Shown here: in pieces, positions 14,131-30,380 of the stretch | Layout: each line of letters begins with the position of its first letter | Position numbering within the stretch: the stretch's first letter is position 1 | DNA from: Novosphingobium sp. | GTDB lineage: Bacteria > Pseudomonadota > Alphaproteobacteria > Sphingomonadales > Sphingomonadaceae | Assembly: GCA_031422595.1 (NCBI GenBank) | Contig: JANPMA010000299.1 | Location: 3,003-67,002, forward strand | DNA: 64,000 nucleotides | Direction: 5' to 3' | Made by a program: the position numbers and the translations under genes | The notes under the pieces: generated by a model | Told to the model about the DNA's origin: nothing | What the model saw: only the letters and a program-made list of their open reading frames with translations | The model's database searches: none

Positions 14131-15051
14131 CTAGCGAACGCCCAGTGCCGCCGCTTGCTCGCGCAGCTCGTTCGCCTTTCCAGGATTTGCGGCCACTGCC
14201 GACATCAGCGCCTTGCGGGCCAAGTCGGGCTGGCCGAGCGTCATACGGCTGCGGATGAGCATGACCCAGCCGTCCACATTGGTCGGATCGGTCTTGAGCC
14301 TGGCTTCGAGCCGGGCGACCATGCCTTCGGCCATTGTGCGTTGTTCAGACGGACGCAGCGCTGACGCGCGGTTGATGTCTTCGGCGCTCGGCCCGGCCAG
14401 GGCGGGCGCGGGCACCGGAAGCTGAGCGGCAGGTTGCTGGACCGCCGCGAGCTGTTTGGCTACGGCGATATGGTTGATCTTGGCCGCCTGCACAATTGTG
14501 CGGCGCAGGTCTGCTTCCCAGGCAGCACCCGGCGGCGTGTCGGCGAGCAACGCCAGCCAGCTGTCGATCGCGCCTTGGTGATCGCCGCTGAGGTCTTGTT
14601 TCACCGCCAGAAAATAGCGCGCGCGCGGGTCTTTGGGATCGAGCGCCACCGCGCGTTCGAAGTCGGTGGCGGCAGCGGCGGGCATCGGATCGCGCGCGCT
14701 GGCCATGACCCGCGCCTCGCCGCGCCCCGACCAGAACGAGGCTTGCTGCGGGGCCAGCTTCACTGCCGCGTCAAAGGCGGCCACGGCCTCATCGAAGCGG
14801 CCTGATTCGAAATAGGCCCCGGCAAGGGCCGACCAGGCCCTGCCGTCCTGAGGATTGTCGCGGGCTCGTGCCTCCAGCGCTGCCAGCGGATCGCCAGTTT
14901 CACCGGTCGACGCAACGGCTTGGCTGGACTCGACGCCGGGAACGCCGGAATGACGCCTGAGCGAAATGCCGATGGAGAAGCCGGCCAAAAGGATTGCCAC
15001 CAGCAAGATCCAGGTGCTGACGCGCCAACGGCCGGTCTGTCCTTCTGGCAT
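14131..15051 (-). CDS. TPR protein, cytochrome c maturation factor CcmI/CycH-like
   Basis: N-terminal TM, then TPR-like repeats (AWSALAGAYFESGRFDEAVAAFDAAVKL). The C-terminal part MAEGMVARLEARLKTDPTNVDGWVMLIRSRMTLGQPDLA resembles the CycH C-terminus. Confidence 0.6.
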   Translation of the reverse strand: MPEGQTGRWRVSTWILLVAILLAGFSIGISLRRHSGVPGVESSQAVASTGETGDPLAALEARARDNPQDGRAWSALAGAYFESGRFDEAVAAFDAAVKLAPQQASFWSGRGEARVMASARDPMPAAAATDFERAVALDPKDPRARYFLAVKQDLSGDHQGAIDSWLALLADTPPGAAWEADLRRTIVQAAKINHIAVAKQLAAVQQPAAQLPVPAPALAGPSAEDINRASALRPSEQRTMAEGMVARLEARLKTDPTNVDGWVMLIRSRMTLGQPDLARKALMSAVAANPGKANELREQAAALGVR

Positions 15052-15192: not shown

Positions 15193-17637
15193 GTGCCAGA
15201 TCGGGTGCGCATCGCCATCGTCGGGTCAGGGCCGGCAGGGCTGAGTGCAGCAGCGCGCGCGGCTCAGCTTGGGCTGACCCACGTGCTCCTCGAGAAGACC
15301 AAGCACCTCTCCGACACGATCTTCAAATACCAGAAGGGCAAGCATGTCATGGCGACGCCCGCCGCGCTGGTGCTGCGCTCGGACCTGCCGTTCGATGCCG
15401 GCCGGCGCGAGATGATACTGGGCGGCTGGGAAGAGCAGTCTGCAGCGCACGGGGTCAACGTGCAATACGATGCCGAAGTGCAGAGCATCGCTGGCGAAGC
15501 AGGCAATTTTGCCATCACGCTCAAGAGCGGCGCGGAAGTGCTGGCCGAGACTGTGATCCTGGCCATCGGCACCCAGGGCAATCCCAATCTCGTCCGCTGC
15601 CCGGTAGGGGAAGACTCGGTGGTCCAGTACCAGCTCGACGATCCCGCCGAATACAACGACGAGCACATTTTCGTGATCGGCGGCGGCGATGCCGGGATTG
15701 AAAATGCACTGGGGCTTGCCGCCGACCCGGCGCAGGGCAACGTGGTCAGCCTGGTAAATCGCTCGGCCGACTTCGCCACCGCGAAAGACGCCAACGTCAA
15801 GGCGCTGATGGCCGCCCGCGATGCCGGACGGATCACGCTCTACGTCGAGACCACGACCGCGCGGATCGATCAGGGCGAAGTTGCACTCGATACCCGCGAC
15901 GGTGAGGTTATCGTGCGCTGCGACCGGGTGATCGCGCGGATGGGTTCGGCCCCGCCACGCGCTTTTGTCGAAGCTTGCGGGATTGCATTTACCGGACCCG
16001 ACCGGCTGGCGCTGCCAGCGCTTTCGCCCTCGTTCGAGACCTCGGTGCCCGGGATTCATGTGATCGGCGCGCTGGCCGGCTATCCGCTGATCAAGCATTG
16101 CATGAACCAGGGCTACGATGTGGTCGAGTTCATCAACGGCAACCGCGACCTGAAGCCCGCCGACGAGCCGATCCTTGCCGCGAAATTCGCTGCGCTTCCC
16201 GGTCAGCGCTCGGTCGATGAGTGGCTGAACCTGTTCGGCAGTCAGATCGAAGTGTTCCGCGAGGTCTCACCGCTCCAGCTGCGCGAGTTGATGCTCGATA
16301 GCACCGCGCGCTGTTTCGCTCCGGGCGAGGCGCTGTTCGTGCGCAATGATACCGGATCGTCGCTCTTCGCCTTGGCCGAGGGTTCAGTGCTGGTCGAGGT
16401 CGACAAAGACGATCCCGCCAAGGTCGTCCCGATCGCCCAAGGTGAAATCGTTGGCGAGGTCGGGCTGATCTCCGGGCGCCGGCGCGGGGCGACTGTGCGC
16501 GCCGACGGGCCAGTAGTCGCGGTCGAGCTGTCACGGACCGCAGCGCTCAAGCTGATCGCCACCGTGCCGGCGGCCGGGCGAGCCATTATGCGCGTGTCGA
16601 TCGAGCGCCAGCTTCTCCAGTTGTTCGGCTCGGGCCTTACGCGCGAGGATGTCGCAGAAGTGGTCGAACTGGCCGAAGTGCAAACCATCAAGGCTGGCGA
16701 GGTTGTCCTCACCGAAGGCGAAACCGGGACCGACATCTACGTCATCCGGCGCGGCTCGATGATCGTTGAAAAGAGCATCGGCGGCAAACAAGTGTTCCTC
16801 AATTACCTGCCCGCCGGGAGTTACGTCGGTGAAATGGCGCTGCTTGACGGTACCCCGCGGGTTGCAACGGTTAAGGCAGCGGTCCGGTCCGAGGTGATCC
16901 GCCTGCCCGGTGAGGCCTTTGCTCGGCTACTGACGCGCAAACCCGAATTGCGCCGCAAGGCGCTGGCCGACATGGCGACACGGCGCGACATCAATGCCTT
17001 TATCGAAGGCCGCAAGGACCAGTTTTCCGGCTCGGTCGATATGTACTCCGAAACCGCCCAGTTCCTGGTCGACAATGGTCTGGGCGAAGCGACCGATGTG
17101 CTGCTGATCGACGAAACCCTGTGCATCGGCTGCGACAATTGCGAAAAGGCCTGCGCCGACAGCCATGATGGACTGACCCGGCTCGACCGCGAAGCCGGGC
17201 GGACATACGCCCATCTCCACGTGCCGACCTCGTGCCGTCACTGTGAACACCCGCACTGCATGGCCGACTGTCCGCCCAACGCGATCAAGCGCGGCCCCGA
17301 TGGTGAGGTGGTGATCGATGACACCTGCATCGGTTGCGGCAATTGCCAGCGCAACTGCCCTTACGGTGTAATCCGGATGGACAGCGTCCCGCCGCCCAAG
17401 CCGCCGCTGCTCAGTTGGTTGCTGTTCGGGGCCGGTCCGGGGCCGGGCGAGCCGAGCTATGCGTGGCGCAAGAAGAACGCGCAGGGCACCGAGCAGCCCA
17501 AGAAGGCGATCAAGTGCGACATGTGCTCGGGGATTGAAGGTGGCCCGGCCTGCGTGCGCGCCTGCCCGACCGGCGCGGCGATCCGCGTCGCGCCCGAGGC
17601 CTTCCTTTCGGTCGCCCGGTTGGCGAAGGACGATTGA
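15193..17637 (+). CDS. Fusion oxidoreductase: TrxR-like NAD(P)H flavoprotein + 2 cyclic-nucleotide-binding domains + DmsB/NrfC-type four-cluster [4Fe-4S] module
   Basis: Dinucleotide motifs IVGSGPAG and VIGGGDAG are present, but I saw no CxxC redox disulfide in the flavoprotein part. The cNMP phosphate-binding cassettes are GEVGLISGRRRGATVRA and GEMALLDGTPRVATVKA. The Cys motifs are CIGCDNCEKAC, CRHCEHPHCMADCP, CIGCGNCQRNCP and CDMCSG..ACVRACP. Confidence 0.85.
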   Translation: MPDRVRIAIVGSGPAGLSAAARAAQLGLTHVLLEKTKHLSDTIFKYQKGKHVMATPAALVLRSDLPFDAGRREMILGGWEEQSAAHGVNVQYDAEVQSIAGEAGNFAITLKSGAEVLAETVILAIGTQGNPNLVRCPVGEDSVVQYQLDDPAEYNDEHIFVIGGGDAGIENALGLAADPAQGNVVSLVNRSADFATAKDANVKALMAARDAGRITLYVETTTARIDQGEVALDTRDGEVIVRCDRVIARMGSAPPRAFVEACGIAFTGPDRLALPALSPSFETSVPGIHVIGALAGYPLIKHCMNQGYDVVEFINGNRDLKPADEPILAAKFAALPGQRSVDEWLNLFGSQIEVFREVSPLQLRELMLDSTARCFAPGEALFVRNDTGSSLFALAEGSVLVEVDKDDPAKVVPIAQGEIVGEVGLISGRRRGATVRADGPVVAVELSRTAALKLIATVPAAGRAIMRVSIERQLLQLFGSGLTREDVAEVVELAEVQTIKAGEVVLTEGETGTDIYVIRRGSMIVEKSIGGKQVFLNYLPAGSYVGEMALLDGTPRVATVKAAVRSEVIRLPGEAFARLLTRKPELRRKALADMATRRDINAFIEGRKDQFSGSVDMYSETAQFLVDNGLGEATDVLLIDETLCIGCDNCEKACADSHDGLTRLDREAGRTYAHLHVPTSCRHCEHPHCMADCPPNAIKRGPDGEVVIDDTCIGCGNCQRNCPYGVIRMDSVPPPKPPLLSWLLFGAGPGPGEPSYAWRKKNAQGTEQPKKAIKCDMCSGIEGGPACVRACPTGAAIRVAPEAFLSVARLAKDD

Positions 17638-18513
17638 ATGGCCAGCGCCCCGCGCCCGTCCCGACAAACTGCGCGCCAGCTTACGGCCGATCACGAGGGC
17701 TTCCTGCGTCACCGCAATTTCCGTTGGCTCAAGCACGCGGGCGCACTGTGCGTTGTCGCCATCCTTGCCTACACGCTGATCGATGTGTCGCCCCGCCCGA
17801 ACGGCGGGACCTGGCTGGGGTACACGCTCGGCACCGTCGGGCTCGTGCTGATCGTCTGGCTCTCGCTGCTGGGCGTGCGCAAACGGACAATGACGCGCGG
17901 TGCCTGGTCGCTCAAGGCCTGGACCTCGGCCCACGTCTATCTTGGTCTCGCGCTGATCGTGATTGCCACGCTGCATACCGGCTTTGAATTCGGCTGGAAC
18001 GTCCACACCCTGGGCTATGCGCTGATGCTGTTGGTGATCGCATCGGGCCTGTTCGGGGTCGTGGTCTATTCCGTGCTGCCCGCGGCGCTCAGCAATAATC
18101 GCGAGCAGATGACCCAGCCGCAGATGGTCGAAGCACTCAGCGCGGTCGACCGCCAGCTACAAAGCGCCGCGCAGCCGCTCGATCCGCACTGGGCCGGGCA
18201 GGTCCTCGCCGCGCTTGGGGAGGGAGCTTTTGCCGGCGGCCTGTGGAGCCGGCTTGCCGGAGGCAAGCACGGCAGTGCGACCCAGCAGGCGATCGCCGCG
18301 TTCGACCTTGCCAGCACAGAAGAAGCCGCCGATCCGGCACTGGTCCGGGTCGAAGCGCTGCTCCAGCGCCGTGCCGCGCAGCTCGCCCGGATGCGGCGGC
18401 ACATGCGCCTCAAAGCGCTGCTTGAGGTTTGGCTCTACGTCCATGTCCCTGCAACCTTCGCTCTGATCGCCGCCTTAACCGCGCATGTGATCAGCGTGTT
18501 CTACTATTGGTAG
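17638..18513 (+). CDS. Polytopic inner-membrane protein, possible b-type cytochrome / electron-transfer subunit
   Basis: The ATG directly follows the upstream stop (TGAATG). There are about 5 TM helices. His residues inside helices (SAHVYLGL..ATLHTGFEFGWNVH; YVHVPATF..LTAHVISV) make haem-b ligation plausible but unproven. Confidence 0.55.
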   Translation: MASAPRPSRQTARQLTADHEGFLRHRNFRWLKHAGALCVVAILAYTLIDVSPRPNGGTWLGYTLGTVGLVLIVWLSLLGVRKRTMTRGAWSLKAWTSAHVYLGLALIVIATLHTGFEFGWNVHTLGYALMLLVIASGLFGVVVYSVLPAALSNNREQMTQPQMVEALSAVDRQLQSAAQPLDPHWAGQVLAALGEGAFAGGLWSRLAGGKHGSATQQAIAAFDLASTEEAADPALVRVEALLQRRAAQLARMRRHMRLKALLEVWLYVHVPATFALIAALTAHVISVFYYW

Positions 18514-18528: not shown

Positions 18529-20226
18529 ATGATCTTTCGGCTCAGAACCGTCGAGACCACCGCCCAGGGCCGCGAAATCGTGCGCGACCGCGACGTTACA
18601 GCGGAGCGGATCACCCTTGGCCGTTCGGCGGACAACACGCTGCACCTGCCCGATCTCGCGCTCGATCCGTACCACGCGGCAATCACGGCGAGCGGCGGCA
18701 GGATCGCCATCGAGGCCCTCGGGTCGCCGGACTTCACTCTCGATGGCCGGCAGGTCAGCGAGGGTACGATCGATCCGCAAGCCGGCGGCGAGCTGCGCTT
18801 TGGCAGCTATCGCATTGCAGTTTCCGAGGCCGAGGATGCAGCGGTTCTGCTCACGATCGGTCAGATCGCCGAGGCATCAGGCACTTCGGAGGAAAAGTCC
18901 GGTTTCTCGCTTGCCGGACGAATGCCGGGCAAGCGGGCAATGTCGTGGCTGCTTGCGCTGGCGATCCTCGCCGCCTTTCTTGTCCTGCCGATCGTCAGCC
19001 AGATGGCCCGCGATCCCGCCGCCAAACAGGGCGTGCTGGGCGACGCGGCGTGGAGTTCGGGTCCGCTTAGCCAGGCGCACCATCAGCTCGAAGGCAAATG
19101 CGAGGCCTGTCACGTCAAGCCGTTTGAAGCGGTGCGCGATACCGCTTGCCTGACCTGCCACAAGGATGTCCACGAGCATGCTGCGCCCACCCGACTGGCC
19201 AATGCCCGCGGGCCTGACGGCTTGGGCGATCGGTTGCAGTGGCAGATCGCGCATTTGTTTGGCAAACCCGGCCCCGGGGCCTGTTCGGATTGTCATTCCG
19301 AACACCAAGGCGCCGGGCGCATGCCGCCGCCGCAGCAAGCCTTTTGCGCCGACTGCCACGGCTCGCTCAAGGATCGCCTGCCCGACACCGCACTTGGCAA
19401 CGCCGCCGATTTCGGCAAGGTGCATCCCGAATTCCGCCCCGCGCTGGCGCTGACTGCGGGCAGCGACAGGTTGACCCGGGTCTCGCTCGCCGAACATCCG
19501 CGCGAGGCGAACGGGCTGACCTTCACCCATGACCAGCACCTCGATCCGCGCGGCGGGGTGGCCCAGATGGCGCTGCGGCTTGGCATGGGGAGCGGCGGAC
19601 TGGGCTGCGCCGCCTGTCACCACCCAACCGCCGACGGGGTCCGCTTCCTGCCGATCGACATGGAGCGTGACTGCGAGGGATGCCACAGCCTGGCCTATGA
19701 CAAGGTCGGCGGTACCTTCCGGCGTCTGAAACACGGCGATACCGACCAGATGATCGCAGATCTCTCGGTCGCGCCGCGCGCGTCCAGTCCAATCGTGACC
19801 GGACGGCGGCGGCCCGGCGACTATGCCAATGGCGGAACCTATTTCGCCCGCTTCACGCCGCCGGGCGGGGGGATCGGATCGGTCGCGCAGGCCCTGTCGC
19901 GCGACGGAATCTGCGGCGAATGCCACACCCCGCGATTGGCCGGCGGGCGTTTCTCGGTGGTGCCGGTGACCCAGACCACGCGTTATTTCAATCACGGCTG
20001 GTTCAACCATGCGGCGCACAAGGAGGAAAAGTGCACCAGTTGCCACGCCGCGGATCGTTCCAACTTGGCGACCGACCTGCTGCTCCCCGATCTCAAATCG
20101 TGCCGCAGCTGTCATTTGGGCGAGGAAGCCCCGCGCGCCAAGGTTCCCTCGACCTGCGCAATGTGTCACGATTATCATCTCAAGCCGCTGGCTCCGCGCG
20201 GGGTCGAACCGCGACGAAAGCGATGA
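18529..20226 (+). CDS. FHA-domain / single-TM / decahaem c-type cytochrome
   Basis: N-terminal FHA-like region (ITLGRSADNTLHLPDLALDPYHAAI). One TM (WLLALAILAAFLVLPIV). Ten CxxCH motifs follow: CEACH, CLTCH, CSDCH, CADCH, CAACH, CEGCH, CGECH, CTSCH, CRSCH and CAMCH. Confidence 0.85.
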   Translation: MIFRLRTVETTAQGREIVRDRDVTAERITLGRSADNTLHLPDLALDPYHAAITASGGRIAIEALGSPDFTLDGRQVSEGTIDPQAGGELRFGSYRIAVSEAEDAAVLLTIGQIAEASGTSEEKSGFSLAGRMPGKRAMSWLLALAILAAFLVLPIVSQMARDPAAKQGVLGDAAWSSGPLSQAHHQLEGKCEACHVKPFEAVRDTACLTCHKDVHEHAAPTRLANARGPDGLGDRLQWQIAHLFGKPGPGACSDCHSEHQGAGRMPPPQQAFCADCHGSLKDRLPDTALGNAADFGKVHPEFRPALALTAGSDRLTRVSLAEHPREANGLTFTHDQHLDPRGGVAQMALRLGMGSGGLGCAACHHPTADGVRFLPIDMERDCEGCHSLAYDKVGGTFRRLKHGDTDQMIADLSVAPRASSPIVTGRRRPGDYANGGTYFARFTPPGGGIGSVAQALSRDGICGECHTPRLAGGRFSVVPVTQTTRYFNHGWFNHAAHKEEKCTSCHAADRSNLATDLLLPDLKSCRSCHLGEEAPRAKVPSTCAMCHDYHLKPLAPRGVEPRRKR

Positions 20227-20242: not shown

Positions 20243-21100
20243 ATGCTGATCGCCCAGATTACCGATTGCCATATCGGCTTTTTCCGCAGCGACGTCGGCG
20301 GAGCCAATACGCGGCGATTGCGCGCCGCGCTCGACCGGCTGCGCGATGGCCCCAATCGCCCCGATCTGCTCCTGCTCTCGGGCGATCTCACCGAATTCGG
20401 CGATGCGGCGAGTTACGCACGGCTGGCGGCAATGCTGGCCGACCTGCCCTTCCCGGTTCACCTGATGGTCGGCAACCACGATGACCGCGATGCCCTGCGC
20501 GCGACCTTTCCGGGGACGCCATTGGACCGGGGCTTCGTGCAATATGTTCTGCCCCTGCTCGGTTTGCGCCTGATCGCGCTGGATACGCTCGAGCCGGGGC
20601 GCCACGGCGGCGCCTTCTGTGCTGAGCGGGCCAAGTGGCTGAACGACCAGTTTGATGCTGACCCGGCGACTCCGGTGGTGATCGCAATGCATCATCCGCC
20701 GCTCGCCTCCGGGCTCGACTGGCTCGACGGAGCTGAGGACGCGCCATGGATCGCCCGCTTCACCGAGGCAATCGCCGGACGCCCGCAAGTGCGCGCGATC
20801 CTTGCCGGACACCTGCACCGCACAATCCACGCCAGCGTTGCGGGCGTACCGCTGACGGTCTGCCCCTCAACCGCGCCGACTGTCGCGCTCAACCTGAACC
20901 CGATCGACCCCGAGCGGCCCGATGGCCGGGCGATGATCGTCGATGAACCCGCGGCATTTGGCTTGCACCGCTGGAACGGCGAACGGCTGATATCGCATTT
21001 CGAGAGCCTGTCCGCCGGGCATCCCTGGGCCGTGCTCGCCAGCTACGATGCGGGGATGCAGGAACTGGTGCGCCAGAACGTCCGCGAGCAGCGCGACTGA
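20243..21100 (+). CDS. Class III cyclic-nucleotide phosphodiesterase (CpdA/Icc-type metallophosphoesterase)
   Basis: Ordered motifs ITDCH, LSGDL, VGNHDD, AMHHPP and AGHLH correspond to D-x-H / GD / GNHD / H / GHxH. The gene comes last in the plus-strand operon. GTG at 20237 is an alternative start. Confidence 0.8.
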   Translation: MLIAQITDCHIGFFRSDVGGANTRRLRAALDRLRDGPNRPDLLLLSGDLTEFGDAASYARLAAMLADLPFPVHLMVGNHDDRDALRATFPGTPLDRGFVQYVLPLLGLRLIALDTLEPGRHGGAFCAERAKWLNDQFDADPATPVVIAMHHPPLASGLDWLDGAEDAPWIARFTEAIAGRPQVRAILAGHLHRTIHASVAGVPLTVCPSTAPTVALNLNPIDPERPDGRAMIVDEPAAFGLHRWNGERLISHFESLSAGHPWAVLASYDAGMQELVRQNVREQRD

Positions 21101-21110
21101 TCTGCGATCC

Positions 21111-24100
21111 TCATCGCCCCGCGCGCCAGGCGCTCATTTCCCCATTGTCGTTGACTCTGTAGAGCAAGCCGCTCCGGTTCAGGAACAACCGCTCCATCTC
21201 GGGCCGGGTGAAGGGGCGGGAGCCAAGCCGGCCGAACACCGCGATCTGCCCGCCGGTTTCATCCACCGCGCGGTCGCGGTCGAGGCCCTTTGACATGGCA
21301 ATGGCCGGAGAAGGGGTCTTCGCCCAAGCGATCAACTCGGGCATCGGCGCGGGCGAAAAGCCGTAGAAGTTGCGCTGGCTTTCCGGCGAGGTCAGCTGCA
21401 GCACTTTCATCCCGTTGCGGCCGTCGGCGACGTAAGCGATCAGCGAGGCATTGGTCGAGGCGACCACCACGTCCTCGGCATCGTTTAGCTGCCCGTCGAA
21501 AGTCACCTTCTGGTAGATTCGTGGGCTACGTGGACGCGTAACATCGACGATCACCAAGCCATCCGCCTTGGCCGCGACATAGGCATAAGTCCGTGCAACA
21601 TAGACCCGCCGCGCATCGGCAAGCGGCACCGTCGCCTCGGGCACCGCCAGCGGTTTTCGCAAGTCAGTCACGTCGAACAACTTGAGCCCGTCGCGGTCGG
21701 TGACCCACAGGTAACGGAATTGCAGCGCAGAGGCGCGCGCGTCGACCAGTTCGCGCACCGCAGCGAGCCGGGGTTTGAGCGGATCGGACAGATCGACGAC
21801 GACCAGACCCTTGGTGGCGGTGATGTAGGCCACCTCACCCGCCAGCACGATATGCCGCGCCCCGTTCAGCACGCCGTCGGGGTTCCAGGTCACCGCGCGG
21901 TGCAGCTTGTTGTTGCGGAATTCACCGTCGGAGAAAGTGTCCACATCGACCAGGATCAACCCTTCGACGCTGTCGGTGATGGCCGCGTAGTTGTAGATCG
22001 GCAGGAACGGCTGCTCCTGGTTGACGTCGCGCATCATCTGGGTGTTGCGTTCAGGCGCGATCGGCTGGTTGGTCGGCAGCGCCATGCAGGTCGCGTCAGC
22101 GGTATCGACCTGGGCATCGCCGGCAAACGGGGCCGAGATGATCGGATCGGCAAAACCCTTGTTGGCAATTGCCGCGACGTCATAGACGTGGAAGCCGCCC
22201 TTACCCTGCGCGACAAACATGTATTCGCCGCGCAGTTGCAGGCACCCGACCTTGTCCGGCGTGCCTTGCACGACGTTGCGGAACTGTTCGACCGGATGAC
22301 TGTCCCCCCCGCCAAGCGAAGCGGTGGTCTTGCCGCGTGTCCAGTTCTTGAGCTCGCGGCTGTTCTGCTCAACGTGCATCCGATAATAATCGGGATAGGC
22401 GTAGCGTTGCAGGTAGGACCCGATCACCGCCTGCGGTTCGTCCCATTCGGTCACCCGCACCGCCTCGAGTCCGCCATCGAGCCCGGTCCAGGCATTGAGC
22501 CCGACGAAGTTGACGTAGTTGGTCCCGAGCAACAGCGTCTGTGCCATGATTGCATTGTTGTCCTCGTTCATGCTGACGTGGCAATCGCTGCAAGTCTTGG
22601 TCTCCTGCGTGCGGACAGTGTGCGCAAAATGCGGTGCGAAGGCCTGGCTTGAAAAGCCCGGCGAGCTGATTGGCGGTTGTTGGGCGTAGATGCGCTCGCG
22701 GCTGCTGTTGGTTGAAGACAGAATAAGCGCAGAAGACGATCTGACCGGCGACACCAGGCCGCCCTTGGTGGTCATGTGCTTGCCTAGTTGGAACATGTCG
22801 TCGCGCGCCACTTGCGGGTTGTAGGTCGCAAAATTGCGCGTTTCCTCCCCCTCGAAACGGTTCACCGAGCTTTTCCAGTTGGCCTCGATCGGCAAGTGGC
22901 ATCCGCCGCAACTGGTGGTCCAGGCAAGGTGACACGAGAAGCAGGCGATCTTGTCGTCCTGGTGCGCACGATCTGCTTTGGGCACACCGGGTCCGAAGCC
23001 GAAACTGCCATCATCCGCCCCCGACCGGCTCATCAGCTTGGCGCGCGCCGACTTGTGGTTGAAATAGGGCGATGCCGGATCGACGCTGTCCTTGGTCAGA
23101 TGCACCTGCCACGACAGGCCCGGATCGACGATCGAACGCTGGATCAGCACCCTTCGGCCAAACTCGTTGTTGACCCATTCAAACCGGCGCTGACCATCCG
23201 GGTTGCGGAGCAAGGCCAGATTGTTGCCTTTGGGCGGTGCGGCAGGCCCCGAGGTCAGCAGCTTGGGATAGGCTTCGGCGGTGCCGTGACAATCAGCGCA
23301 GCCGATCTCCACCGCATTTGCGACTTCGCCGTAGATCAGCCCGTTGCCATGGCTGTCCTGCGCAAAGTGGCAATCGGCGCATTGCATGCCCTTCTCGGCG
23401 TGGATGTCCATCAGGTGTACGGTCTTGCCCGGGTTGACCCCTGGTTGAACGAATTTCCCCTGCCCCTGGGTGCGCCATTTCTCGGGATCGTCGGGTGCGA
23501 CAATATGCGCCTTGTCGGTCCCCCAAGTTGCCATCGAGCCTCCCGCATCGAGCAGGTTTCCGGCCCGGTCGCGCTTGAACACGCCACGGAAATTCCAGCC
23601 GTGGCTGTGATAGTCGGCAAATTGGGTATCCTTGAGACCGGCATTGAGATCGTAAACGTTGCGCAGAAAATCGAGATCGCCCCACAGGCCGCTTGCGGCT
23701 GCACCTTCGGGGTTGCGTTCGTTGATCGAGCGGATCGTCGCAGCATCCGGATAGCGCTGATGCTTGTACAGGCGCTCATAATCCGCATCGCTCATCCCCG
23801 GCGGGCGCGGACTACGGTTTTCGGGGCCTGGCCACATCGAGGACGCGTCGGCCTCATAATCCCACATCGTATAGCCAAGGAACGAATTCACGAACACGTT
23901 GGGCTGATGCATATGGCAACTCATGCACTGTGCAGTCGGGATCGCGCGGGTGAAGACGTGGCCGAGCGGATGCCCGGATTCCTTGTCCGAGCCGGCATCC
24001 GACGATCCATGATCACCTTTGAGCCGGCCGTGATTACCGGTCTTGCTGGTGATGGTCGGATCGACGGTCACGCTCTGTCCGTCGCGCCCAAATTGCGCAT

Positions 24101-25157
24101 AGATCGAGCTGTGGCGCGGTTCACGGTCGTTGGCGTAGATCACATGGCAGCCCGAGCAGCCCGATCCGCGATAGTCGCCGGGCTGGTCGTTGGTCCCCAT
24201 GAACCACATGAAAGGATCGTTGAGCCTGGTCTTGTGGATGTTGAGCACCGGGATGGCGACCCTGAGGCCGGTCCCGGGACCGCGGTTCGATTGTTTGAGA
24301 TCCGGGCGTCCCGGTTCTTCCAGCCGCTGGATTGATCCAGTCGGATTGGGCAAGCCGACCTCGGCAAAGCCGGTGCCATTGTTGCGCCCCCCGTCCTCGA
24401 ACACCCGGAACACGTCACCCGGGGGCACTACATTCCAGCGCGGCAAGGGATAGAGCGCAGCCAGCGCCCCGCGCGCCGCCTGACGCTTGCTCAGCGTTCC
24501 AGGCGCAACCACCTTGGCCGGCTTGCCGTCGCGGGTATAGGCTTCGCCGAAGACGTAGTTCTTGAGCGGGACGATCCCGTTGTTATAGGCCGCGCCGCCC
24601 CACAGCATCGCCCCGCTCGACATCAGCGAGCGCTCGGCCGCTTCGATTGTCGGTAAATGACACGCACCGCAAGCTTCGCGGGCGACTCGGTAATCGCCCG
24701 GATTGACGAACCGGATAAACTCCGGCGCCTCGCGATTGAGCAGTGAATAGCTGCGTTGCGGGTTGGCGGATGAAGGGAAATGCCAAGCCCCGGGATATTG
24801 CGGCAGCACATGCGCGCGGTCACGCATCGCGGTGTAGGTGGAGTCATCGCGCGGCAGCGAGGGATTTCCGAGAATGCTTGCATCGCCGCCATGGCAGTCG
24901 GTGCAGCCCAGTCGCACCGCGGGCGATACGTGCATGGTCGGGGCTTCGGTCTTGACGTGGCACGACTGGCAGCCATCGGTCTTGGCAGCTGCCTGCTGTT
25001 CGGTTTGCTTTGCCGGGGCCGGTGGAGCCGTCACCAGCGCGTAGTTACGGACAATCTGCTTCTCACCCTCACTGGCCCGGATGCCGGAGGAATGGAGCAA
25101 GACGGCCATGGCGCAGGTCAATGTGGCAAGAGCCAGCAGGGCGCGCTGTATCGGCAT
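21111..25157 (-). CDS. Secreted decahaem c-type cytochrome fused to a C-terminal LVIVD-repeat beta-propeller
   Basis: 1348 aa with a signal peptide (LALATLTCAMAVLL). Ten CxxCH motifs: CQSCH, CTDCH, CGACH, CSGCH, CMSCH, CADCH x2, CFSCH, CGGCH and CSDCH. The last ~450 aa carry about six LVIVD-type repeats (GLILVDVD, GLVVVDLSDP, GLKLFDVTDL, GLVIVDVTRP, GMKVLQLTSP). Confidence 0.85.
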   Translation of the reverse strand: MPIQRALLALATLTCAMAVLLHSSGIRASEGEKQIVRNYALVTAPPAPAKQTEQQAAAKTDGCQSCHVKTEAPTMHVSPAVRLGCTDCHGGDASILGNPSLPRDDSTYTAMRDRAHVLPQYPGAWHFPSSANPQRSYSLLNREAPEFIRFVNPGDYRVAREACGACHLPTIEAAERSLMSSGAMLWGGAAYNNGIVPLKNYVFGEAYTRDGKPAKVVAPGTLSKRQAARGALAALYPLPRWNVVPPGDVFRVFEDGGRNNGTGFAEVGLPNPTGSIQRLEEPGRPDLKQSNRGPGTGLRVAIPVLNIHKTRLNDPFMWFMGTNDQPGDYRGSGCSGCHVIYANDREPRHSSIYAQFGRDGQSVTVDPTITSKTGNHGRLKGDHGSSDAGSDKESGHPLGHVFTRAIPTAQCMSCHMHQPNVFVNSFLGYTMWDYEADASSMWPGPENRSPRPPGMSDADYERLYKHQRYPDAATIRSINERNPEGAAASGLWGDLDFLRNVYDLNAGLKDTQFADYHSHGWNFRGVFKRDRAGNLLDAGGSMATWGTDKAHIVAPDDPEKWRTQGQGKFVQPGVNPGKTVHLMDIHAEKGMQCADCHFAQDSHGNGLIYGEVANAVEIGCADCHGTAEAYPKLLTSGPAAPPKGNNLALLRNPDGQRRFEWVNNEFGRRVLIQRSIVDPGLSWQVHLTKDSVDPASPYFNHKSARAKLMSRSGADDGSFGFGPGVPKADRAHQDDKIACFSCHLAWTTSCGGCHLPIEANWKSSVNRFEGEETRNFATYNPQVARDDMFQLGKHMTTKGGLVSPVRSSSALILSSTNSSRERIYAQQPPISSPGFSSQAFAPHFAHTVRTQETKTCSDCHVSMNEDNNAIMAQTLLLGTNYVNFVGLNAWTGLDGGLEAVRVTEWDEPQAVIGSYLQRYAYPDYYRMHVEQNSRELKNWTRGKTTASLGGGDSHPVEQFRNVVQGTPDKVGCLQLRGEYMFVAQGKGGFHVYDVAAIANKGFADPIISAPFAGDAQVDTADATCMALPTNQPIAPERNTQMMRDVNQEQPFLPIYNYAAITDSVEGLILVDVDTFSDGEFRNNKLHRAVTWNPDGVLNGARHIVLAGEVAYITATKGLVVVDLSDPLKPRLAAVRELVDARASALQFRYLWVTDRDGLKLFDVTDLRKPLAVPEATVPLADARRVYVARTYAYVAAKADGLVIVDVTRPRSPRIYQKVTFDGQLNDAEDVVVASTNASLIAYVADGRNGMKVLQLTSPESQRNFYGFSPAPMPELIAWAKTPSPAIAMSKGLDRDRAVDETGGQIAVFGRLGSRPFTRPEMERLFLNRSGLLYRVNDNGEMSAWRAGR

Positions 25158-27046
25158 CAGAAGGAGAATACCGTGTTGAGCAGCACTGAATAGTACCTGT
25201 TGTGGCGCTGCGCATTGTCGAACAGATCCTGAAACCCGCTGCCGGGGAGCAGCGCCGCAGCTGAGAGTCGCACGACGATGTTCTGCGTCGCTTTGGGCCG
25301 CCAGATCGTCGAGAGCGACAGGTCCCAGCCGATATCTCTTGGAATGCTGCCCTCATTCCGCAGATCCTGCAGCGTTGCGGTGTTGGCGAACCAAAGATGA
25401 TTTGCATTGACCGAGAGACGATAGGTCGGCCTCAGGTCGAAATCGCCGCCCAGCCCGACCAGCACCGTTCCGGGACTGTTGAAATTCGACTGGCCCTGTT
25501 CTTTGGACGAGCGCAGCGAATTGAGCACGCCATTGCGCCCGTTAAGCGCGACCGCCCGGCCGCCGCCGGCAAAGGGAATTGTCTGGCGAATCCAGTAAGA
25601 GGTGTCCGCCCCGGCAAAAACCGGGTTCTCGAACACTGCGTCGAAACCGCCTTCGGTGTTGTCACGCGGGCTACCGTCACCGCTGGCATAGAGTGCCGAG
25701 AGGCGGAAGCGTTTCCAGTCCTTGTCGTACGACAGCTCGCCTGCTGCAAACCCTGCCTGGATCTTGGCCCGGCTGCCGGTGAAGAAGCTGTTCCGATCCT
25801 GCCCCAGCGCGAGATAGGTCGATCCGGTAAAGCCGAAGCGGCCAATCCGGCCGTCGGTGTTGTAGCCGAGATAGACCACATCGTAATCGCGTCCGCGCAG
25901 CGTGCCCAGCAATGCGGGCCGCACCGGGAACCCGTTGTCGTCGACCTTGATCCGGCCACCTTCGCGATTGCGGTTGTAAATCACGGTCAGCTGGCTGGTC
26001 AGCGCGGGAAGCGGAAAATCCTGGCGATAGAGATTGGCAACGAACACCCAGTCATTGCGCGGGCGCTCGGTCACGTTGTTGAGCCCCGAATTGGTGTCCT
26101 TCTCCAGCCGCCAGAAAGCAGCGAGGTTGTATTGCCAGCGGTTGCCGTCGCGGTTGCCGAAGAAGCGCACACCAAGTTGATTATCGTTGAACAGAAAGCC
26201 GCGAAAATCGGACTGGAATGGCTGAATTCCAACCCGCACCGAATCGAAATCATAGCGCACCGAGACGTTGCGCAGGTGGTAGTCGACGAACAATTCCTGG
26301 AGGCCGACGAAGTGGTCGGCGCGGTGGCTCGGTTTCGAGGGATCGACCGACAGCACCCTCCGCTCAGGCACGTCGACGTAGTTGAAATTGAACCCCAGCG
26401 CGATCCGGTATTCGATTTCGGGCGGCTTGAATGCGGTGTTGCCCTTGGTCAGCGAAGCCCCGACCAGGAAAGTCTGCGAAAAGACATAGCTCGCACCCTT
26501 GCCGAACACATCGAGGCTACCGGGTCGCTCGGTGGTCTGGACGCCGACCGGGATCGGGAACGTGCGCGGCTCGAGCACCGTGTCCGAGACCAGACTAAGC
26601 GTCAGAAACCAGTCATCCCCCTTCAGAAATCCGGGCCGCTTGCCCTCGGACAAAGGCAGATCGCCCTTGAGCAGGTTCTGGTGAAAGGGATCACGCTTCG
26701 AATGGCAGACCTGACGCAGATTTGGATAGAGCCTGAGCAGCGACTGGTCGGCCCCCTTGGCCGGGCACAAGCCGGTCATGATCCGCCAACGATCGGGCAC
26801 GGGAATCTGATCTGTCGGGAAAGCCTCGGGTGGAGGCGCTCGCACCGCGCCGGGGTTATCCTGCGAAACCGGCTCGGGCAAGCTGCGCTCGAAGCCCGGT
26901 CGGCGGCGGCCTTCGATCACCTGAGGGTCGACTTCCGGCGGACTTGCAACGTCGGAATCGGCGACAGGTGGCGACGGTGGAGGGGGCGGTCCCGGATTCG
27001 CCGCCTGGGCCAGCAGCAGCGGCAGCAAAAGCGCGCCCGCCCCCAT
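25157..27046 (-). CDS. Outer-membrane beta-barrel protein with a Pro-rich N-terminal linker (candidate porin partner of the cytochromes)
   Basis: 629 aa. A signal peptide is followed by NPGPPPPPSPP... The body is rich in G/Y/N/D/F/R and has an alternating-strand character. It ends ...LLNTVFSF, a C-terminal Phe OMP signature. Its start and stop codons overlap both neighbours by 1 nt. Confidence 0.65.
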   Translation of the reverse strand: MGAGALLLPLLLAQAANPGPPPPPSPPVADSDVASPPEVDPQVIEGRRRPGFERSLPEPVSQDNPGAVRAPPPEAFPTDQIPVPDRWRIMTGLCPAKGADQSLLRLYPNLRQVCHSKRDPFHQNLLKGDLPLSEGKRPGFLKGDDWFLTLSLVSDTVLEPRTFPIPVGVQTTERPGSLDVFGKGASYVFSQTFLVGASLTKGNTAFKPPEIEYRIALGFNFNYVDVPERRVLSVDPSKPSHRADHFVGLQELFVDYHLRNVSVRYDFDSVRVGIQPFQSDFRGFLFNDNQLGVRFFGNRDGNRWQYNLAAFWRLEKDTNSGLNNVTERPRNDWVFVANLYRQDFPLPALTSQLTVIYNRNREGGRIKVDDNGFPVRPALLGTLRGRDYDVVYLGYNTDGRIGRFGFTGSTYLALGQDRNSFFTGSRAKIQAGFAAGELSYDKDWKRFRLSALYASGDGSPRDNTEGGFDAVFENPVFAGADTSYWIRQTIPFAGGGRAVALNGRNGVLNSLRSSKEQGQSNFNSPGTVLVGLGGDFDLRPTYRLSVNANHLWFANTATLQDLRNEGSIPRDIGWDLSLSTIWRPKATQNIVVRLSAAALLPGSGFQDLFDNAQRHNRYYSVLLNTVFSF

Positions 27047-29028
27047 TACAAGCCTTGGCAGACATTCTGCGCGTCGCTGCCGATAAACGGCGCGAAGGGA
27101 CAGCTGACATAGCGCAGCCGCGCCGACGCGCCGCCACCAAGGTCGAAGACAAGCGTATCGGCGCGAACCGCTGCAGGCGCATTGCCGAGCGTGCCCAATG
27201 CGGTGGCAGCGTTGTTCAGCCCCAGGAACGCAATCATGTCATCCTGATCGATACCGTCTCCCGAAACCCCAATCGCCCCGATCAGCTTGTTCCCTCGATA
27301 GACTGGCACTCCGCCGGCAAAGATCTGTATTCCGTTCTGCAAGCGATTTTGGCCGGGCGTTGCATCGGGAATGAAGCTGCACCGTGCCGGGGTATCGATG
27401 CCGCTCGCACCGGCGACATAGTTCAGGTGCTGGCCCAGGTTGGACAGCACCAGCGCGGATTGCAGCCCGGTCGAGAACGGGCTCCACTTCGCAATCGGGC
27501 GCGACAGGGGTCCGTTGGGACGCGCGACCTCGCCATCGGGAAAATACGGCCGTGACAGGTTACCCATCGCGCGGGCAGACAGCGCCAACTGCCCGGTAAG
27601 CGCGGCCGGATCGGCGAAGAAGCTGCGCATCGCAGGAACGAAGCTGCGCACATCGGGGCTGGGATCGGCCAGCAGCTGCGCGGCGGCGTTGGGATTGGTG
27701 AAGAAGGCCGCCGTGCGCGCCTTCTGCAACGACACGTCGATTCCAAACACGGGTGCATCGGGTGAGCGGACCAGCCCCAATGGCACACCGCGTGTGTCGA
27801 CGAGCGCAATGGTCACTTGCGCCCGGCTGTCGAGCGGCTGCCGGATCTGGGCTCGGGCATGGGCCATCGTGCTGAATGCCTGCTCGAGAATGCGTTGCGA
27901 TTCGAGTGCACTGATCGGCGTGCCGACTTCGGCGCCGTCACTGCCCGCGCGCAGCGGAAAGCGGTTGATGCCCGAGCCGTCGCTCAGGACGAACGCATCG
28001 CCGGTGGTAAACTCGGCAGCGGTCGCCGGGCGCACCCCGGATGCTTCGCTGCCATATGCTGCGCCAGACAGGACCGCCGCGACAGGGTAATAGCCGGTCA
28101 CCGGGGTCAACCCACCCAATGCCGGAACGGTAGCGGCATAGGTCGCCCCGGCCAGATTGGTCAGGTTGGCATAATCGGTGTCGGTATAACGCAGCAAAGT
28201 GCCGTCGACCGAAATCCGGTTCGCGCGCACATCGACTGGCGCTTCAAACCCGACGGTGCCGGCCAGACCACTGCGCTCGTCGGTGTCGCTGTCGACATCG
28301 AGCACATTCGGGTCAAAGCCATAAACTCCATCGCCCGAAACGCCGACCCCGCCGACGACCACCCCGTTCTTGTACAGCGGGAAGCCGCCTGGATCGGCCG
28401 AAAGCCCCAGCGGCGAGCGCTTTGGTCCGATCATGTTGGCCGGACCGGGTGCCAGCCTCGCGGCGAGGTCGGAACAGGGCAATTGGCTGAATTGTACCCC
28501 GAACAACGGGCCGCTCTCCAGCCCGACGGTCGAGGGTGCAGGCGGAAAGCGCTGCTGCACGATCATGCTTGCGGTGCGCGTGGAAAAAGCGTTGCCGCTG
28601 CTCGAAAGGTAAGCCCCGGTGATCGCCTTGGCGATCGCGGCGGCTTCGGCCGGCACGTTCAGGCCCTGGATGTCCTGCTGTGAACCATCCATCGCTTTCG
28701 GTATCGCGGCGAGAGCAGGAGCACCCGTCATACGCAGCATGGCGAGCACATTGCCGACCCGGTCAGTTACCGCGATCACTGCCGGACGGTTGTCCGCATG
28801 CGCCTGCGCAGCGGCCTCAGCCAAGACCTTTTGCACGTCCGCAACCGAAAGCGATTCCGCAGCCGGAGCGGTATAGAATGATCCCGCCGTCGGGGGCGGA
28901 GATGGAGAAGGAGTCGGGGTAACACCGCCGCCCCCGCCCGAGCCGCCGCTGGCCCCTCCACCGCCGCCACAAGCAGCAAGGTTGAGCAAGGCAATCCAGC
29001 CCAGAATCTGCGCCGCAAGCTTCTTCAT
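27046..29028 (-). CDS. Lipoprotein with two GlcG/HbpS-type (DUF336) putative haem/corrinoid-binding domains
   Basis: Lipobox LNLAAC is followed by a Gly/Ser/Pro linker. Domain 1 is around PAVIAVTDRVGNVLAM. Domain 2 is IALVDTRGVPLGLV...FAGGVPVYRGNKLIGAIGVSGDGIDQDDMIA, the canonical DUF336 C-terminal motif. Confidence 0.75.
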   Translation of the reverse strand: MKKLAAQILGWIALLNLAACGGGGGASGGSGGGGGVTPTPSPSPPPTAGSFYTAPAAESLSVADVQKVLAEAAAQAHADNRPAVIAVTDRVGNVLAMLRMTGAPALAAIPKAMDGSQQDIQGLNVPAEAAAIAKAITGAYLSSSGNAFSTRTASMIVQQRFPPAPSTVGLESGPLFGVQFSQLPCSDLAARLAPGPANMIGPKRSPLGLSADPGGFPLYKNGVVVGGVGVSGDGVYGFDPNVLDVDSDTDERSGLAGTVGFEAPVDVRANRISVDGTLLRYTDTDYANLTNLAGATYAATVPALGGLTPVTGYYPVAAVLSGAAYGSEASGVRPATAAEFTTGDAFVLSDGSGINRFPLRAGSDGAEVGTPISALESQRILEQAFSTMAHARAQIRQPLDSRAQVTIALVDTRGVPLGLVRSPDAPVFGIDVSLQKARTAAFFTNPNAAAQLLADPSPDVRSFVPAMRSFFADPAALTGQLALSARAMGNLSRPYFPDGEVARPNGPLSRPIAKWSPFSTGLQSALVLSNLGQHLNYVAGASGIDTPARCSFIPDATPGQNRLQNGIQIFAGGVPVYRGNKLIGAIGVSGDGIDQDDMIAFLGLNNAATALGTLGNAPAAVRADTLVFDLGGGASARLRYVSCPFAPFIGSDAQNVCQGL

Positions 29029-30380
29029 CGCAGCGCACCGATCGCATTGACAGCTTGCCGCAGCGCTGCCCGAAAAGCACCCGGATCATATTCTGCAGGA
29101 CTCGCTACGGCGGCGTAGGCACGGTTGATGCTGGCGCGAATCCCGGCTGCGGCGCCGACCGTGACCCGGCCCTCGCGGACCAGCAGGTTGAGCAGCGTAT
29201 CAACTGCCATCACCGACTGGGCCGACCCGGCGTAGTCGGTGAAGCGAACCGAGATTGCCCGCCCCCCGATCGCTGCGATGACCTGGAAAGCAGTATCGCT
29301 ACCGCCCGGCCCGCGCGCAACCGCGTCTCCGAGCGCACTTGCCGCTGCAACCAGCCGGCCCGCTGCAGCCACCGCCTCCGGGCGCCCTTTTTCCATCGCG
29401 GCGTGGAAATTGCGGGCGGCTGCATCGAACTGCGCGGCTTCGCGCGGCGCCAGAACCTGGGCCACGGCCGAGAGCATGATGATGTTCTCATCGTTGAAAG
29501 GCGGTTGACCGAATGGGATCGGCCGAGCCGGATTTGTCTCAAACGTCCGCGCCCGCTGCGGATTGTCGTCGATCCCGCGATGGCAGCTGTGGCAATCGTA
29601 AAAGGTGAATTCCGGGAATATCCCGTTGCTGGCCAGGTCTGACTGCCGAAACAAGCTGAGCGAGCGCTGTACTGCCTCGGCCTGTCCCACCGCCCACAGC
29701 CGGACGCTGTCGTTCGAGGGCTTACGCGCGGTGTAGTCGGCGTCCACGTCCCAATGCTGTTGCAGCGAGGAGAACAGGTCGAGTTCGAACGAAAGCCGGG
29801 GATGTCCCGCTGCCATCATCGCATGCGTTACGAACTGGCCAGGCTTGCCGCTGCCCAAATGGCAATCGAGACAAACCGCAGCGCGCACCTTGGGGTTGTC
29901 GAGCGCGCTCATGCCGCCAGCCACGTTGCCAGCATGGCTCGCCCCAACCGCATAGTGACTGGCAATCCAGCCCGATGCCGGGCCGTGGCAGCCTTCGCAG
30001 CCCACCCCGTCGGAAATCAGGAAGCGGTCGCCGCGCGCGCCTGCCGGGGTGGCATGGCAACCGAGGCAAGCCGCCGCCGAGCCGGCCCGGCCAAGCCCCA
30101 GAGTGCTTGCGATCCGTTCACCGCGCAGCGATACAAGCGCCGCGTAGGTACGGCTGTGTGCGCCGCCCCGCGACGCGGGTTCCTGCCACAACCTGAGTTC
30201 ATCCTGGCGGACAACCTTGCCATCACCATCAGCACGGCCGTGGCAGGTCGAACCGGCGCAGTTGGCGACGCCTTCATAGCGGCCGGAAGCGAGGGCTGCT
30301 CCAGTTGCCGCGCCGGCAAGCGCAGCCATGCCAAGCAGCGCAGCCAGCCTGCGACGAACGGCAGTTCCGAAAGTCGGCAT
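29025..30380 (-). CDS. Secreted multihaem c-type cytochrome (c554 / multihaem family-like)
   Basis: I chose the ATG at 30380 because GGAGGG lies 4 nt upstream. Signal peptide is LAALLGMAALAGAATGAALA. Motifs are CLGCH, CEGCH, CLDCH and CHSCH plus a CAGSTCH (Cx4CH) site. The stop overlaps the next start (ATGA). Confidence 0.8.
   Translation of the reverse strand: MPTFGTAVRRRLAALLGMAALAGAATGAALASGRYEGVANCAGSTCHGRADGDGKVVRQDELRLWQEPASRGGAHSRTYAALVSLRGERIASTLGLGRAGSAAACLGCHATPAGARGDRFLISDGVGCEGCHGPASGWIASHYAVGASHAGNVAGGMSALDNPKVRAAVCLDCHLGSGKPGQFVTHAMMAAGHPRLSFELDLFSSLQQHWDVDADYTARKPSNDSVRLWAVGQAEAVQRSLSLFRQSDLASNGIFPEFTFYDCHSCHRGIDDNPQRARTFETNPARPIPFGQPPFNDENIIMLSAVAQVLAPREAAQFDAAARNFHAAMEKGRPEAVAAAGRLVAAASALGDAVARGPGGSDTAFQVIAAIGGRAISVRFTDYAGSAQSVMAVDTLLNLLVREGRVTVGAAAGIRASINRAYAAVASPAEYDPGAFRAALRQAVNAIGALR

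Follow-up and report, generated by a model that had tools for sequence, protein, structure and literature searches.

Two preprints describe the systems closest to the one examined here. A 2024 paper on oxygen-deficient zones (ODZ) reported the operon ptdABCDEFG, in which PtdE is a 4Fe-4S protein that binds cyclic nucleoside monophosphate (cNMP), PtdF a ferric-reductase-like transmembrane (TM) protein and PtdG a periplasmic decahaem protein (published accessions include SMF72608, CTQ45791 and QTD51417), and which occurs in Alpha- and Gammaproteobacteria, Nitrospinota, Planctomycetota, Acidobacteriota, Verrucomicrobiota and Gemmatimonadota (bioRxiv 10.1101/2023.11.21.568154). A 2026 preprint on Ferrigenium described NHC, a protein with a cytosolic FHA domain, one TM helix, a periplasmic multihaem domain and no signal peptide, encoded beside a 5-TM protein without an InterPro match and a [4Fe-4S] protein; its authors considered the combination of FHA and multihaem domains previously unreported and left the function of NHC open. 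The subject of this report is a gene of the same kind, at 18529..20226 (+ strand) of a 64,000-nt stretch of Novosphingobium sp. DNA (assembly GCA_031422595.1, contig JANPMA010000299.1, positions 3,003 to 67,002; the whole stretch is called the window below). It encodes a protein of 565 amino acids (aa), referred to as the FHA-cytochrome, that consists of an FHA domain, one TM helix and a decahaem cytochrome c.

By architecture (FHA domain, one TM helix, nine or ten CxxCH sites, 5-TM and 4Fe-4S neighbours) the window protein fits the PtdG/NHC family, and the FHA-decahaem fusion is not new: the NHC preprint already describes such a protein, and the ptd operon seems to encode the same module. The gene order PtdE, PtdF, PtdG is also that of the window, a match by architecture only. 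There are differences: NHC has nine haems where the window protein has ten, and its host is a betaproteobacterial iron oxidiser; in the window one fusion protein combines a FAD/NAD(P)H domain with the cNMP/FeS part, whereas ptd has a separate oxidoreductase, PtdC; and no counterparts of ptdAB (pentahaem and porin genes) can be recognised in the window, which carries an operon with an LVIVD-repeat decahaem protein instead. A gene like that for PtdD (tetrahaem, c554-like) lies directly upstream of the module in one distant related locus (L088). The FHA domain is not mentioned in the ptd paper, and the NHC preprint neither reports redox ligands for the 5-TM protein nor looks at the phosphothreonine (pThr) residues of the FHA domain. 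New with respect to both preprints are a pThr pocket that is degenerate yet retains an invariant Arg, the probable bis-His ligation of all ten haems, two invariant His pairs in the ‘featureless’ 5-TM neighbour, four invariant cluster motifs and intact cNMP cassettes in the reductase, and the systematic association of cNMP-signalling genes with the module. The window gene is one ordinary member of its family, and it belongs to an uncharacterised system with a plausible and unusual mechanism. We propose, at a probability of roughly 0.5, that this system is a transmembrane electron conduit linked to cNMP, with the FHA domain serving as a largely phospho-independent docking module.

The gene is present in the window as an open reading frame (ORF) with an ATG start. 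The first-pass annotation, made from the sequence alone, had read its product as a cytoplasmic FHA domain joined by one TM helix to a periplasmic cytochrome with ten canonical CxxCH sites, and this reading holds throughout: Pfam, hydropathy and AlphaFold2 (AF2) agree on the order of the parts. The cytoplasmic FHA-fold domain occupies residues 1–112 (18529..18864, +; Pfam, AF2, Foldseek and residue statistics), the TM helix, oriented N-in/C-out, residues 135–159 (18931..19005, +; hydropathy, AF2, counts of Lys plus Arg (K+R), and alignment), and the periplasmic domain the remainder (19006..20223, +; Pfam and alignment). There are exactly ten CxxCH sites, at residues 191, 207, 252, 273, 360, 382, 462, 502, 525 and 543, so that the haem region runs from a first Cys at 191 to a last His at 547; all 20 Cys of the protein fall inside these motifs, and no Cx3CH or Cx4CH site is found in its 565 aa. 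In a 67-sequence alignment reaching down to 27% identity the ten CxxCH are all invariant, as are ten extra His (184, 217, 259, 299, 334, 337, 402, 494, 497 and 550), an invariance of motifs and His that far exceeds chance. Because these ten further His are invariant beside the ten CxxCH, all ten haems are probably bis-His ligated. The cytochrome region matches Pfam Cytochrom_c3_2, Cytochrome_C7 and Paired_CXXCH_1, and Foldseek against the PDB returned no structural relative of the haem domain. The MtrA/DmsE decahaem family was considered and rejected, there being no NCBIfam match (TIGR03508 and relatives) and the N-terminal part of the protein holding an FHA domain and a signal-anchor helix in place of the signal peptide of that soluble periplasmic family.

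Hydropathy reveals a single hydrophobic helix (Kyte-Doolittle maximum 2.57 at residues 138–156), and AF2 places a helix at residues 135–159. Within it Pro154 is invariant, Lys/Arg136 just ahead of it is conserved, and a conserved motif (D172, W175, G178, L180-S181, H184) follows directly after it. Among 131 family representatives with the complete architecture (described below), the 15 residues before the helix hold on average 3.38 K+R and the 15 after it 1.64, with more before than after in 116/131, and an N-terminal hydrophobic or signal-like segment is present in none (0/131). The Ccm system attaches haem covalently in the periplasm alone, and the CxxCH part must therefore be periplasmic. 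The topology of the FHA-cytochrome is N-in, C-out, with the FHA domain cytoplasmic and the haems periplasmic, which bears out the division between compartments made in the first-pass annotation.

The same architecture recurs widely. A word-indexed search recovered at least 968 homologues, full-length at 56–87% identity, which carry the annotation ‘cytochrome c3 family protein’ in Novosphingobium and its relatives; ‘FHA domain-containing protein’ is already the name of one UniRef entry in the family. A profile search run exhaustively over 1.84 billion cluster representatives (clusters at 50% identity) gave 4708 clusters at E≤1e-3, of which 718 reach E≤1e-30. One representative is 100% identical to the window protein, and an exact look-up of both in the contig index gave no match. 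Among the best 150 representatives, 131 share an FHA-like domain, a helix starting at residue 132–144 and exactly ten CxxCH; most of the remaining 19 are fragments, and three of the 150 are nine-haem variants. Rare variants include a 496-aa protein (P0272) with the helix and ten haems and without the FHA domain, and a 692-aa protein (P0253) in which a different N-terminal region of 240 aa, lacking a Pfam match, replaces it. The closest genome locus encodes a protein 91% identical to that of the window. All of the 80 genome loci recovered with a closer alignment are from Sphingomonadales, as are all homologues among the best 120 listed by a diverse-profile search, and hosts of the window clade include Novosphingobium and Erythrobacter. 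Look-ups of individual clusters gave two hosts, a Geminicoccaceae metagenome-assembled genome and Sphingomonas sp. KC8. The FHA-decahaem fusion is a real, ancient and widespread architecture.

For the window protein alone the FHA assignment by profile is borderline (Pfam PF00498 on residues 28–92, 20.8 bits against a cut-off of 20.7). It is firmer across the family: 23/25 full-length homologues match at E≤0.01 (best 1.2e-9), and a homologue of 27% identity (P0390) scores 34.3 bits to PF00498. The second-best Pfam match, found in 20/25 homologues, is Yop-YscD_cpl, the cytoplasmic FHA domain of YscD, and an NCBIfam match to the N-terminus of GltG was also obtained. The AF2 model, built from the 67-sequence alignment, has a predicted local distance difference test score (pLDDT) of 94–97 over residues 1–110 and forms an 11-strand sandwich (residues 2–112), and all of its 37 Foldseek matches in the PDB at E≤1e-3 are FHA domains, including those of OdhI, GarA, EmbR, FhaA, ArnA and DgcB (TM-scores, target-normalised, 0.5–0.74). 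The FHA fold of the N-terminal domain is real, and the FHA call of the first-pass annotation is upheld by profile and structure together.

The pThr pocket of this domain is degenerate. In canonical FHA domains three residues contact a phosphopeptide: the Arg of a Gly-Arg pair in the β3-β4 loop (the main phosphate ligand), the Ser of an SxxH motif in the β4-β5 loop (likewise a phosphate ligand, the His of the motif being structural) and an Asn of the β6-β7 loop, which touches the peptide backbone at pT+1. All 131 representatives have Gly31 and 129/131 have Arg32, with Lys in the remaining two; in the 67-sequence alignment these are the only invariant residues of the cytoplasmic part. His49 is kept in 112/131. 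The Ser position, by contrast, is Asp46 in the window protein (‘LDPYHA’, aligned to ‘LSRSHA’ of the DgcB FHA domain, 6hc1) and D/E in Sphingomonadales, with Ala in 48, Ser in 17, Gly in 12, Pro in 11 and Leu in 8 of the 131 representatives. The β6-β7 loop reads ‘GSPDF’ in the window protein and ‘GTLGF’ in the family consensus where ‘GSTNG’ would be expected, and Asn is not among the common residues at position 67 (A/L/S/Q/G) or 68 (G/P/D/T/A) of the 131. The first-pass annotation had supposed that the domain recruits a partner, for example the FeS fusion protein, or regulates the electron chain through phosphothreonine. The Gly-Arg pair and the His which that would call for are there and the Ser and the Asn are not; with two of the three contacts gone, phosphothreonine-dependent logic as stated there is not supported, and the sequence of the pocket weakens the phosphothreonine reading generally. 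The absolute conservation of Arg32, beyond a purely structural role, points to some anionic ligand, for which an acidic patch, a weakly bound phospho-residue, or a lipid or nucleotide phosphate would be candidates.

That the domain is nonetheless a true phosphothreonine reader, with kinase and phosphatase encoded elsewhere and phosphorylation of a partner (the flavo-FeS protein, for instance, or the insert between TM4 and TM5 of the 5-TM protein) switching assembly or electron flow, we consider unlikely. The genuine fold, the invariance of Gly31-Arg32 with its main phosphate ligand, the conserved His49 and the 17/131 representatives with Ser at the SxxH position would all suit such a reader; an acidic side chain, as in Asp46, is unfavourable at the phosphate-binding Ser site, and the loop Asn is missing throughout the family. 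As the first-pass annotation had observed, the window shows no Ser/Thr kinase: a Pfam scan of likely coding ORFs up to ~54.9 kb found neither kinase nor PP2C, and a search of the whole window for the kinase catalytic-loop motif was negative. Kinase and PP2C homologues occur in only 1/90 related loci (~1.5 Mb in all), namely L088, from a Geminicoccaceae metagenome-assembled genome (JAWKVO010000017.1), where PP2C and Pkinase genes lie just upstream of the module on the same strand. This one locus could be counted in favour of phosphothreonine reading, but there the FHA domain of the cytochrome itself lacks both Ser and His. The same cluster in L088, whose PP2C, Hanks-kinase and FHA genes fall at 2565-5244 and 20014-20550, also encodes a small, fully canonical FHA protein (GR, SRNH, STNGT), which by its motifs is more likely to be the partner of the kinase than is the FHA-cytochrome of that locus. 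A nearby glutamate dehydrogenase was considered as a client of the FHA domain, by comparison with GarA, and was set aside, being syntenic in close relatives only and having no other support.

The FHA-cytochrome gene is the third of a tightly packed operon, in the order flavo-FeS-cNMP protein, 5-TM protein, FHA-decahaem protein, cNMP phosphodiesterase. The first gene (15193..17637, +; Pfam/NCBIfam, alignment) encodes a cytoplasmic fusion protein of 814 aa, in which a FAD/NAD(P)H domain resembling YpdA and TrxR is joined to two cNMP-binding domains and to a four-cluster [4Fe-4S] ferredoxin domain; the suggestion of the first-pass annotation that the FeS fusion protein belongs to the same system is supported by its place in the operon and by synteny (below). 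In the flavoprotein part two GxGxxG motifs are conserved; the cNMP-binding domains resemble those of the PKA regulatory subunit, with both phosphate-binding cassettes conserved; and the ferredoxin domain is HycB/NrfC-like, each of the 16 Cys that make up its four cluster motifs being invariant in 79/79 sequences. The gene ends in a TGA directly adjoining the ATG of the 5-TM gene (17638..18513, +), and a 15-nt gap with a G-rich ribosome-binding region separates the latter from the FHA-cytochrome gene. The last gene (20243..21100, +; Pfam/NCBIfam) encodes a SpdA/CpdA-like cyclic-nucleotide phosphodiesterase of the metallophosphoesterase type.

The operon is held together across the family. Among 85 loci, the 5-TM gene adjoins the FHA-cytochrome gene in 84, the phosphodiesterase is present in 80 and the flavo-FeS-cNMP gene in 73, and where operon partners are missing this mostly reflects the end of a contig. 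The trio persists in loci in which the cytochrome is only 32–34% identical to that of the window (L003, L087 and L088). In the same loci the flavo-FeS-cNMP protein is 69–94% identical, compared with 46–91% for the cytochrome.

The 5-TM protein (291 aa) is predicted, from His conservation and weak Pfam matches, to be a dihaem cytochrome b. Four His are invariant in 87–88/88 orthologues, down to 42% identity: one pair, His99 and His113, lies in TM3 and the other, His269 and His283, in TM5. Both pairs share Hx13H spacing, and under positive-inside topology residues 99 and 269 lie near the cytoplasmic face and 113 and 283 near the periplasmic face, an arrangement typical of dihaem b-type cytochromes. 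Between TM4 and TM5 lies a cytoplasmic helical insert of ~110 aa. Ni_hydr_CYTB (PF01292) matches 18/19 members below threshold (best 1.1e-6), Ferric_reduct (PF01794) gives a weak match in 4/19 homologues, and DUF4405 matches some; all three are dihaem-b families. No curated family match was obtained for the protein, nor any PDB relative by sequence or profile search.

Taken together, these features are consistent with a conserved transmembrane redox module of three subunits, the FHA-cytochrome being the one that faces the periplasm, for which the following path can be envisaged. In the cytoplasm, subunit 1 (15193-17637) would pass electrons from NAD(P)H through FAD to its four [4Fe-4S] clusters, a step that would respond to cAMP or cGMP by way of the two cNMP-binding domains of this subunit. 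In subunit 2 (17638-18513) the two Hx13H pairs would hold one b haem at each membrane face, so that electrons could cross the bilayer. Subunit 3, the FHA-cytochrome, would then act as a ten-haem, bis-His periplasmic wire that may exchange electrons, in either direction, with the neighbouring multihaem and LVIVD proteins. Since a single helix cannot conduct electrons, the TM helix of the FHA-cytochrome is taken as an anchor that would tether the haem wire to the b-cytochrome. On the cytoplasmic face the FHA domain would position the reductase or the cytoplasmic insert of subunit 2, docking through the surface around the invariant Arg32 and most likely without phosphothreonine. Docking of a cytoplasmic part of the complex is its most likely role, given the degenerate pThr pocket and a layout like that of YscD and GltG.

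The cNMP connection extends beyond the operon. Two CHASE2-domain class III nucleotide cyclases are encoded at 30492-32348 and 33768-36008 (both +), with an M48 peptidase gene between them (32857-33771, +) and a FecR-domain gene after the second (36018-37055, −), and CHASE2 cyclases also adjoin the module in the distant loci L004 and L087. The cyclases could supply the cNMP and the phosphodiesterase of the operon remove it. The cNMP-binding domains, the operon phosphodiesterase and the nearby cyclases together suggest that cNMP gates or tunes electron flux. A more far-reaching and tentative version of this proposal holds that these proteins form a new class of cNMP-gated transmembrane electron conduit in many aerobic or microaerobic bacteria: the CHASE2 cyclases would sense an extracytoplasmic signal and raise cNMP, opening a path from NAD(P)H through FAD, four [4Fe-4S] clusters, two haems b and ten haems c to periplasmic or outer-membrane acceptors, while the FHA domain would be a clamp between the haem wire and the gated reductase, its Arg32-centred, non-canonical site receiving an acidic or phosphorylated surface. 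Beside the operon, at 13563-14129 (+), lies a gene for a 188-aa PycTM protein (Pfam PF18967, E 1.2e-25, the Pycsar anti-phage effector); it keeps its place in 40 related loci, and no pyrimidine cyclase gene adjoins it. Its product may be a cNMP-responsive membrane protein recruited to the system rather than a defence gene.

So dense a set of cNMP genes, comprising two CHASE2 cyclases, a phosphodiesterase, tandem cNMP-binding domains and a PycTM-like protein in a neighbourhood that recurs in distant loci, could also be expected of a redox sensor. On that account the haem domain would report the redox state of the periplasm through the helix to the FHA domain, FHA domains being typical signalling adaptors, and so alter its binding to a cyclase, the phosphodiesterase or the cNMP-binding flavoprotein. 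We regard this as very unlikely: ten bis-His haems, a dihaem b-cytochrome and a four-cluster ferredoxin would amount to a complete wire, more than a sensor requires; conformational changes linked to redox state are poorly transmitted through a single TM helix; and the FHA domain carries no fused output domain.

Several observations weigh against the proposed conduit and the docking role of its FHA domain. In one distant locus, L004, the 5-TM and FHA-cytochrome genes occur without an adjacent flavo-FeS gene, and for this reason the reductase may not be obligatory. The AF2 model of the 5-TM protein, built from a 16-sequence alignment, is poor (pLDDT 61.7) and gave no Foldseek match at E≤1e-3, so that the b-cytochrome assignment rests on His conservation and sub-threshold Pfam matches. 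One subgroup of the family, for which two look-ups of nearby kinases reached short contigs only, retains a canonical SxxH motif (‘DLAVSLRHA’), and the strict invariance of Arg32 would also fit a phospho-ligand in a reduced pocket. Both preprints, moreover, call the function of the module unknown. The 2024 preprint also lends independent support to the conduit, in that it describes PtdF as ferric-reductase-like and PtdE as combining cNMP-binding and 4Fe-4S features.

The absence of an adjacent flavo-FeS gene in L004 would sit well with another arrangement, proposed for Ferrigenium in the 2026 preprint, in which the cytochrome forms a quinone-pool interface in the manner of NapC/NirT/CymA/NrfH and links periplasmic or outer-membrane partners, such as Fe(II) oxidases, to the respiratory chain, with or without the 5-TM protein and with the flavo-FeS protein as an accessory. 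The two share a similar architecture of one TM helix followed by periplasmic haems; the conserved post-helix motif (D172 to H184) could set haem 1 near the membrane surface, and Ni_hydr_CYTB, which the 5-TM protein weakly resembles, has quinone-reactive members. However, the FHA-cytochrome itself has no Cytochrom_NNT or NrfH match at E≤0.1 in Pfam or NCBIfam, for which reason membership of the NapC/NirT/NrfH/CymA family was rejected. The flavo-FeS-cNMP gene, besides, is translationally coupled and its product better conserved than the cytochrome, as expected of a core subunit, and the hosts of the window clade (Novosphingobium, Erythrobacter) are aerobic heterotrophs that are not known to oxidise iron. 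We judge the quinone interface to be quite unlikely.

Further genes around the operon that concern haem proteins are shared with related loci. Divergent from the operon, at 14131..15051 (−), is a gene for a CcmH/CycH-type TPR protein resembling an apocytochrome c chaperone, syntenic in 63 loci; CcmF and CcmH genes adjoin the module in L087. Convergent to it is a four-gene operon (21111..30461, −), syntenic in 38–60 loci, which encodes a c554-like protein with four or five haems (29025-30461, −), an HbpS-like lipoprotein of 660 aa (27046-29028, −), a secreted protein of 629 aa without a Pfam family (25157-27046, −) and a secreted ten-haem LVIVD-repeat protein of 1348 aa (21111-25157, −). The lipoprotein has a signal ending in Cys followed by a Gly run, and repeated HbpS-like domains of haem-degrading or haem-binding type. 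The 1348-aa protein combines ten CxxCH with C-terminal LVIVD repeats (a β-propeller), and gives weak NCBIfam matches to ExtM, a cytochrome of selenite/tellurite reduction (64 bits, cut-off 800). LVIVD or HbpS-like neighbours also occur in the distant loci L004, L088 and L090, with large LVIVD proteins convergent to the module in L088 and L090 and the HbpS-like neighbour recurring in L004 and L088.

Two other ORFs stand further out. A 171-aa ORF at 37593-38108 (−) resembles Phage_integrase over the C-terminal catalytic portion alone and is probably a remnant; the island of multihaem and cNMP genes may have its edge here. A 1029-aa ORF at 8273-11362 (+), unrelated to the FHA-cytochrome, has an N-terminal NAD(P)-binding Rossmann-like domain and a weak acetoacetate-decarboxylase-like region.

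Were the conduit to operate as proposed, a large family of proteins, comprising hundreds of 50%-identity clusters and, according to the literature, spread across many phyla, would give reducing power from the cytoplasm a signal-gated path to the periplasm or cell surface. Its hosts include such common aerobic heterotrophs as Novosphingobium, Sphingomonas, Sphingobium and Erythrobacter. The proposal would bear on extracellular electron transfer, on the redox cycling of metals and humic substances, and on iron oxidation by Gallionellaceae, in which the same protein has been proposed as a missing periplasmic link. It would also show plainly that a redox complex can put an FHA domain to new use, as an anchor largely independent of phosphorylation. 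Arg32, the partner residues His99, His113, His269 and His283, and the cNMP cassettes are the targets for mutagenesis.

Beyond ptd and NHC, the proposed path finds parallels in two groups of redox complexes. In the Tmc and Hmc complexes of sulfate reducers the logic is shared, a periplasmic multihaem cytochrome c being joined through a membrane b-cytochrome to a cytoplasmic FeS protein (in Tmc, the cytochrome c3 TmcA, the cytochrome b TmcC and the FeS protein TmcB, respectively). The C-terminal haem region gives a sub-threshold NCBIfam match to TmcA (E 1.3e-5, 25 bits, cut-off 114), whereas the membrane and cytoplasmic subunits of Tmc/Hmc have no detectable homology to those of the window operon; unlike in those complexes, the FeS protein of the window is fused to a flavoprotein and cNMP domains, and its cytochrome c is anchored in the membrane and carries an FHA domain. 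NOX, FRE and MsrQ resemble the proposed path in passing electrons from NAD(P)H through flavin and two b haems, held by two His pairs on two TM helices, to an acceptor on the far side. They differ in that the window protein has five helices, not six, in that a four-cluster ferredoxin would intervene, in that the flavoprotein is of TrxR/YpdA type, not FNR type, and in that the acceptor would be a decahaem cytochrome c. Tmc/Hmc and NOX/ferric reductases may thus be regarded as the nearest functional analogues, a likeness that does not amount to membership by homology.

For the FHA domain the closest parallels are of another kind. YscD/EscD of type III secretion and GltG of gliding motility have the same layout of an N-terminal cytoplasmic FHA domain, one TM helix and a periplasmic domain, and YscD and GltG are single-pass inner-membrane proteins of trans-envelope machines. 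The FHA domain of YscD lacks pThr-binding residues and is a structural docking module. The scores of these matches fall below the curated cut-offs (18.5 against 33.2 bits), and the FHA-cytochromes depart from YscD and GltG in two respects: their periplasmic part would be a haem wire, not a ring-building domain, and the Arg of their Gly-Arg pair is invariant.

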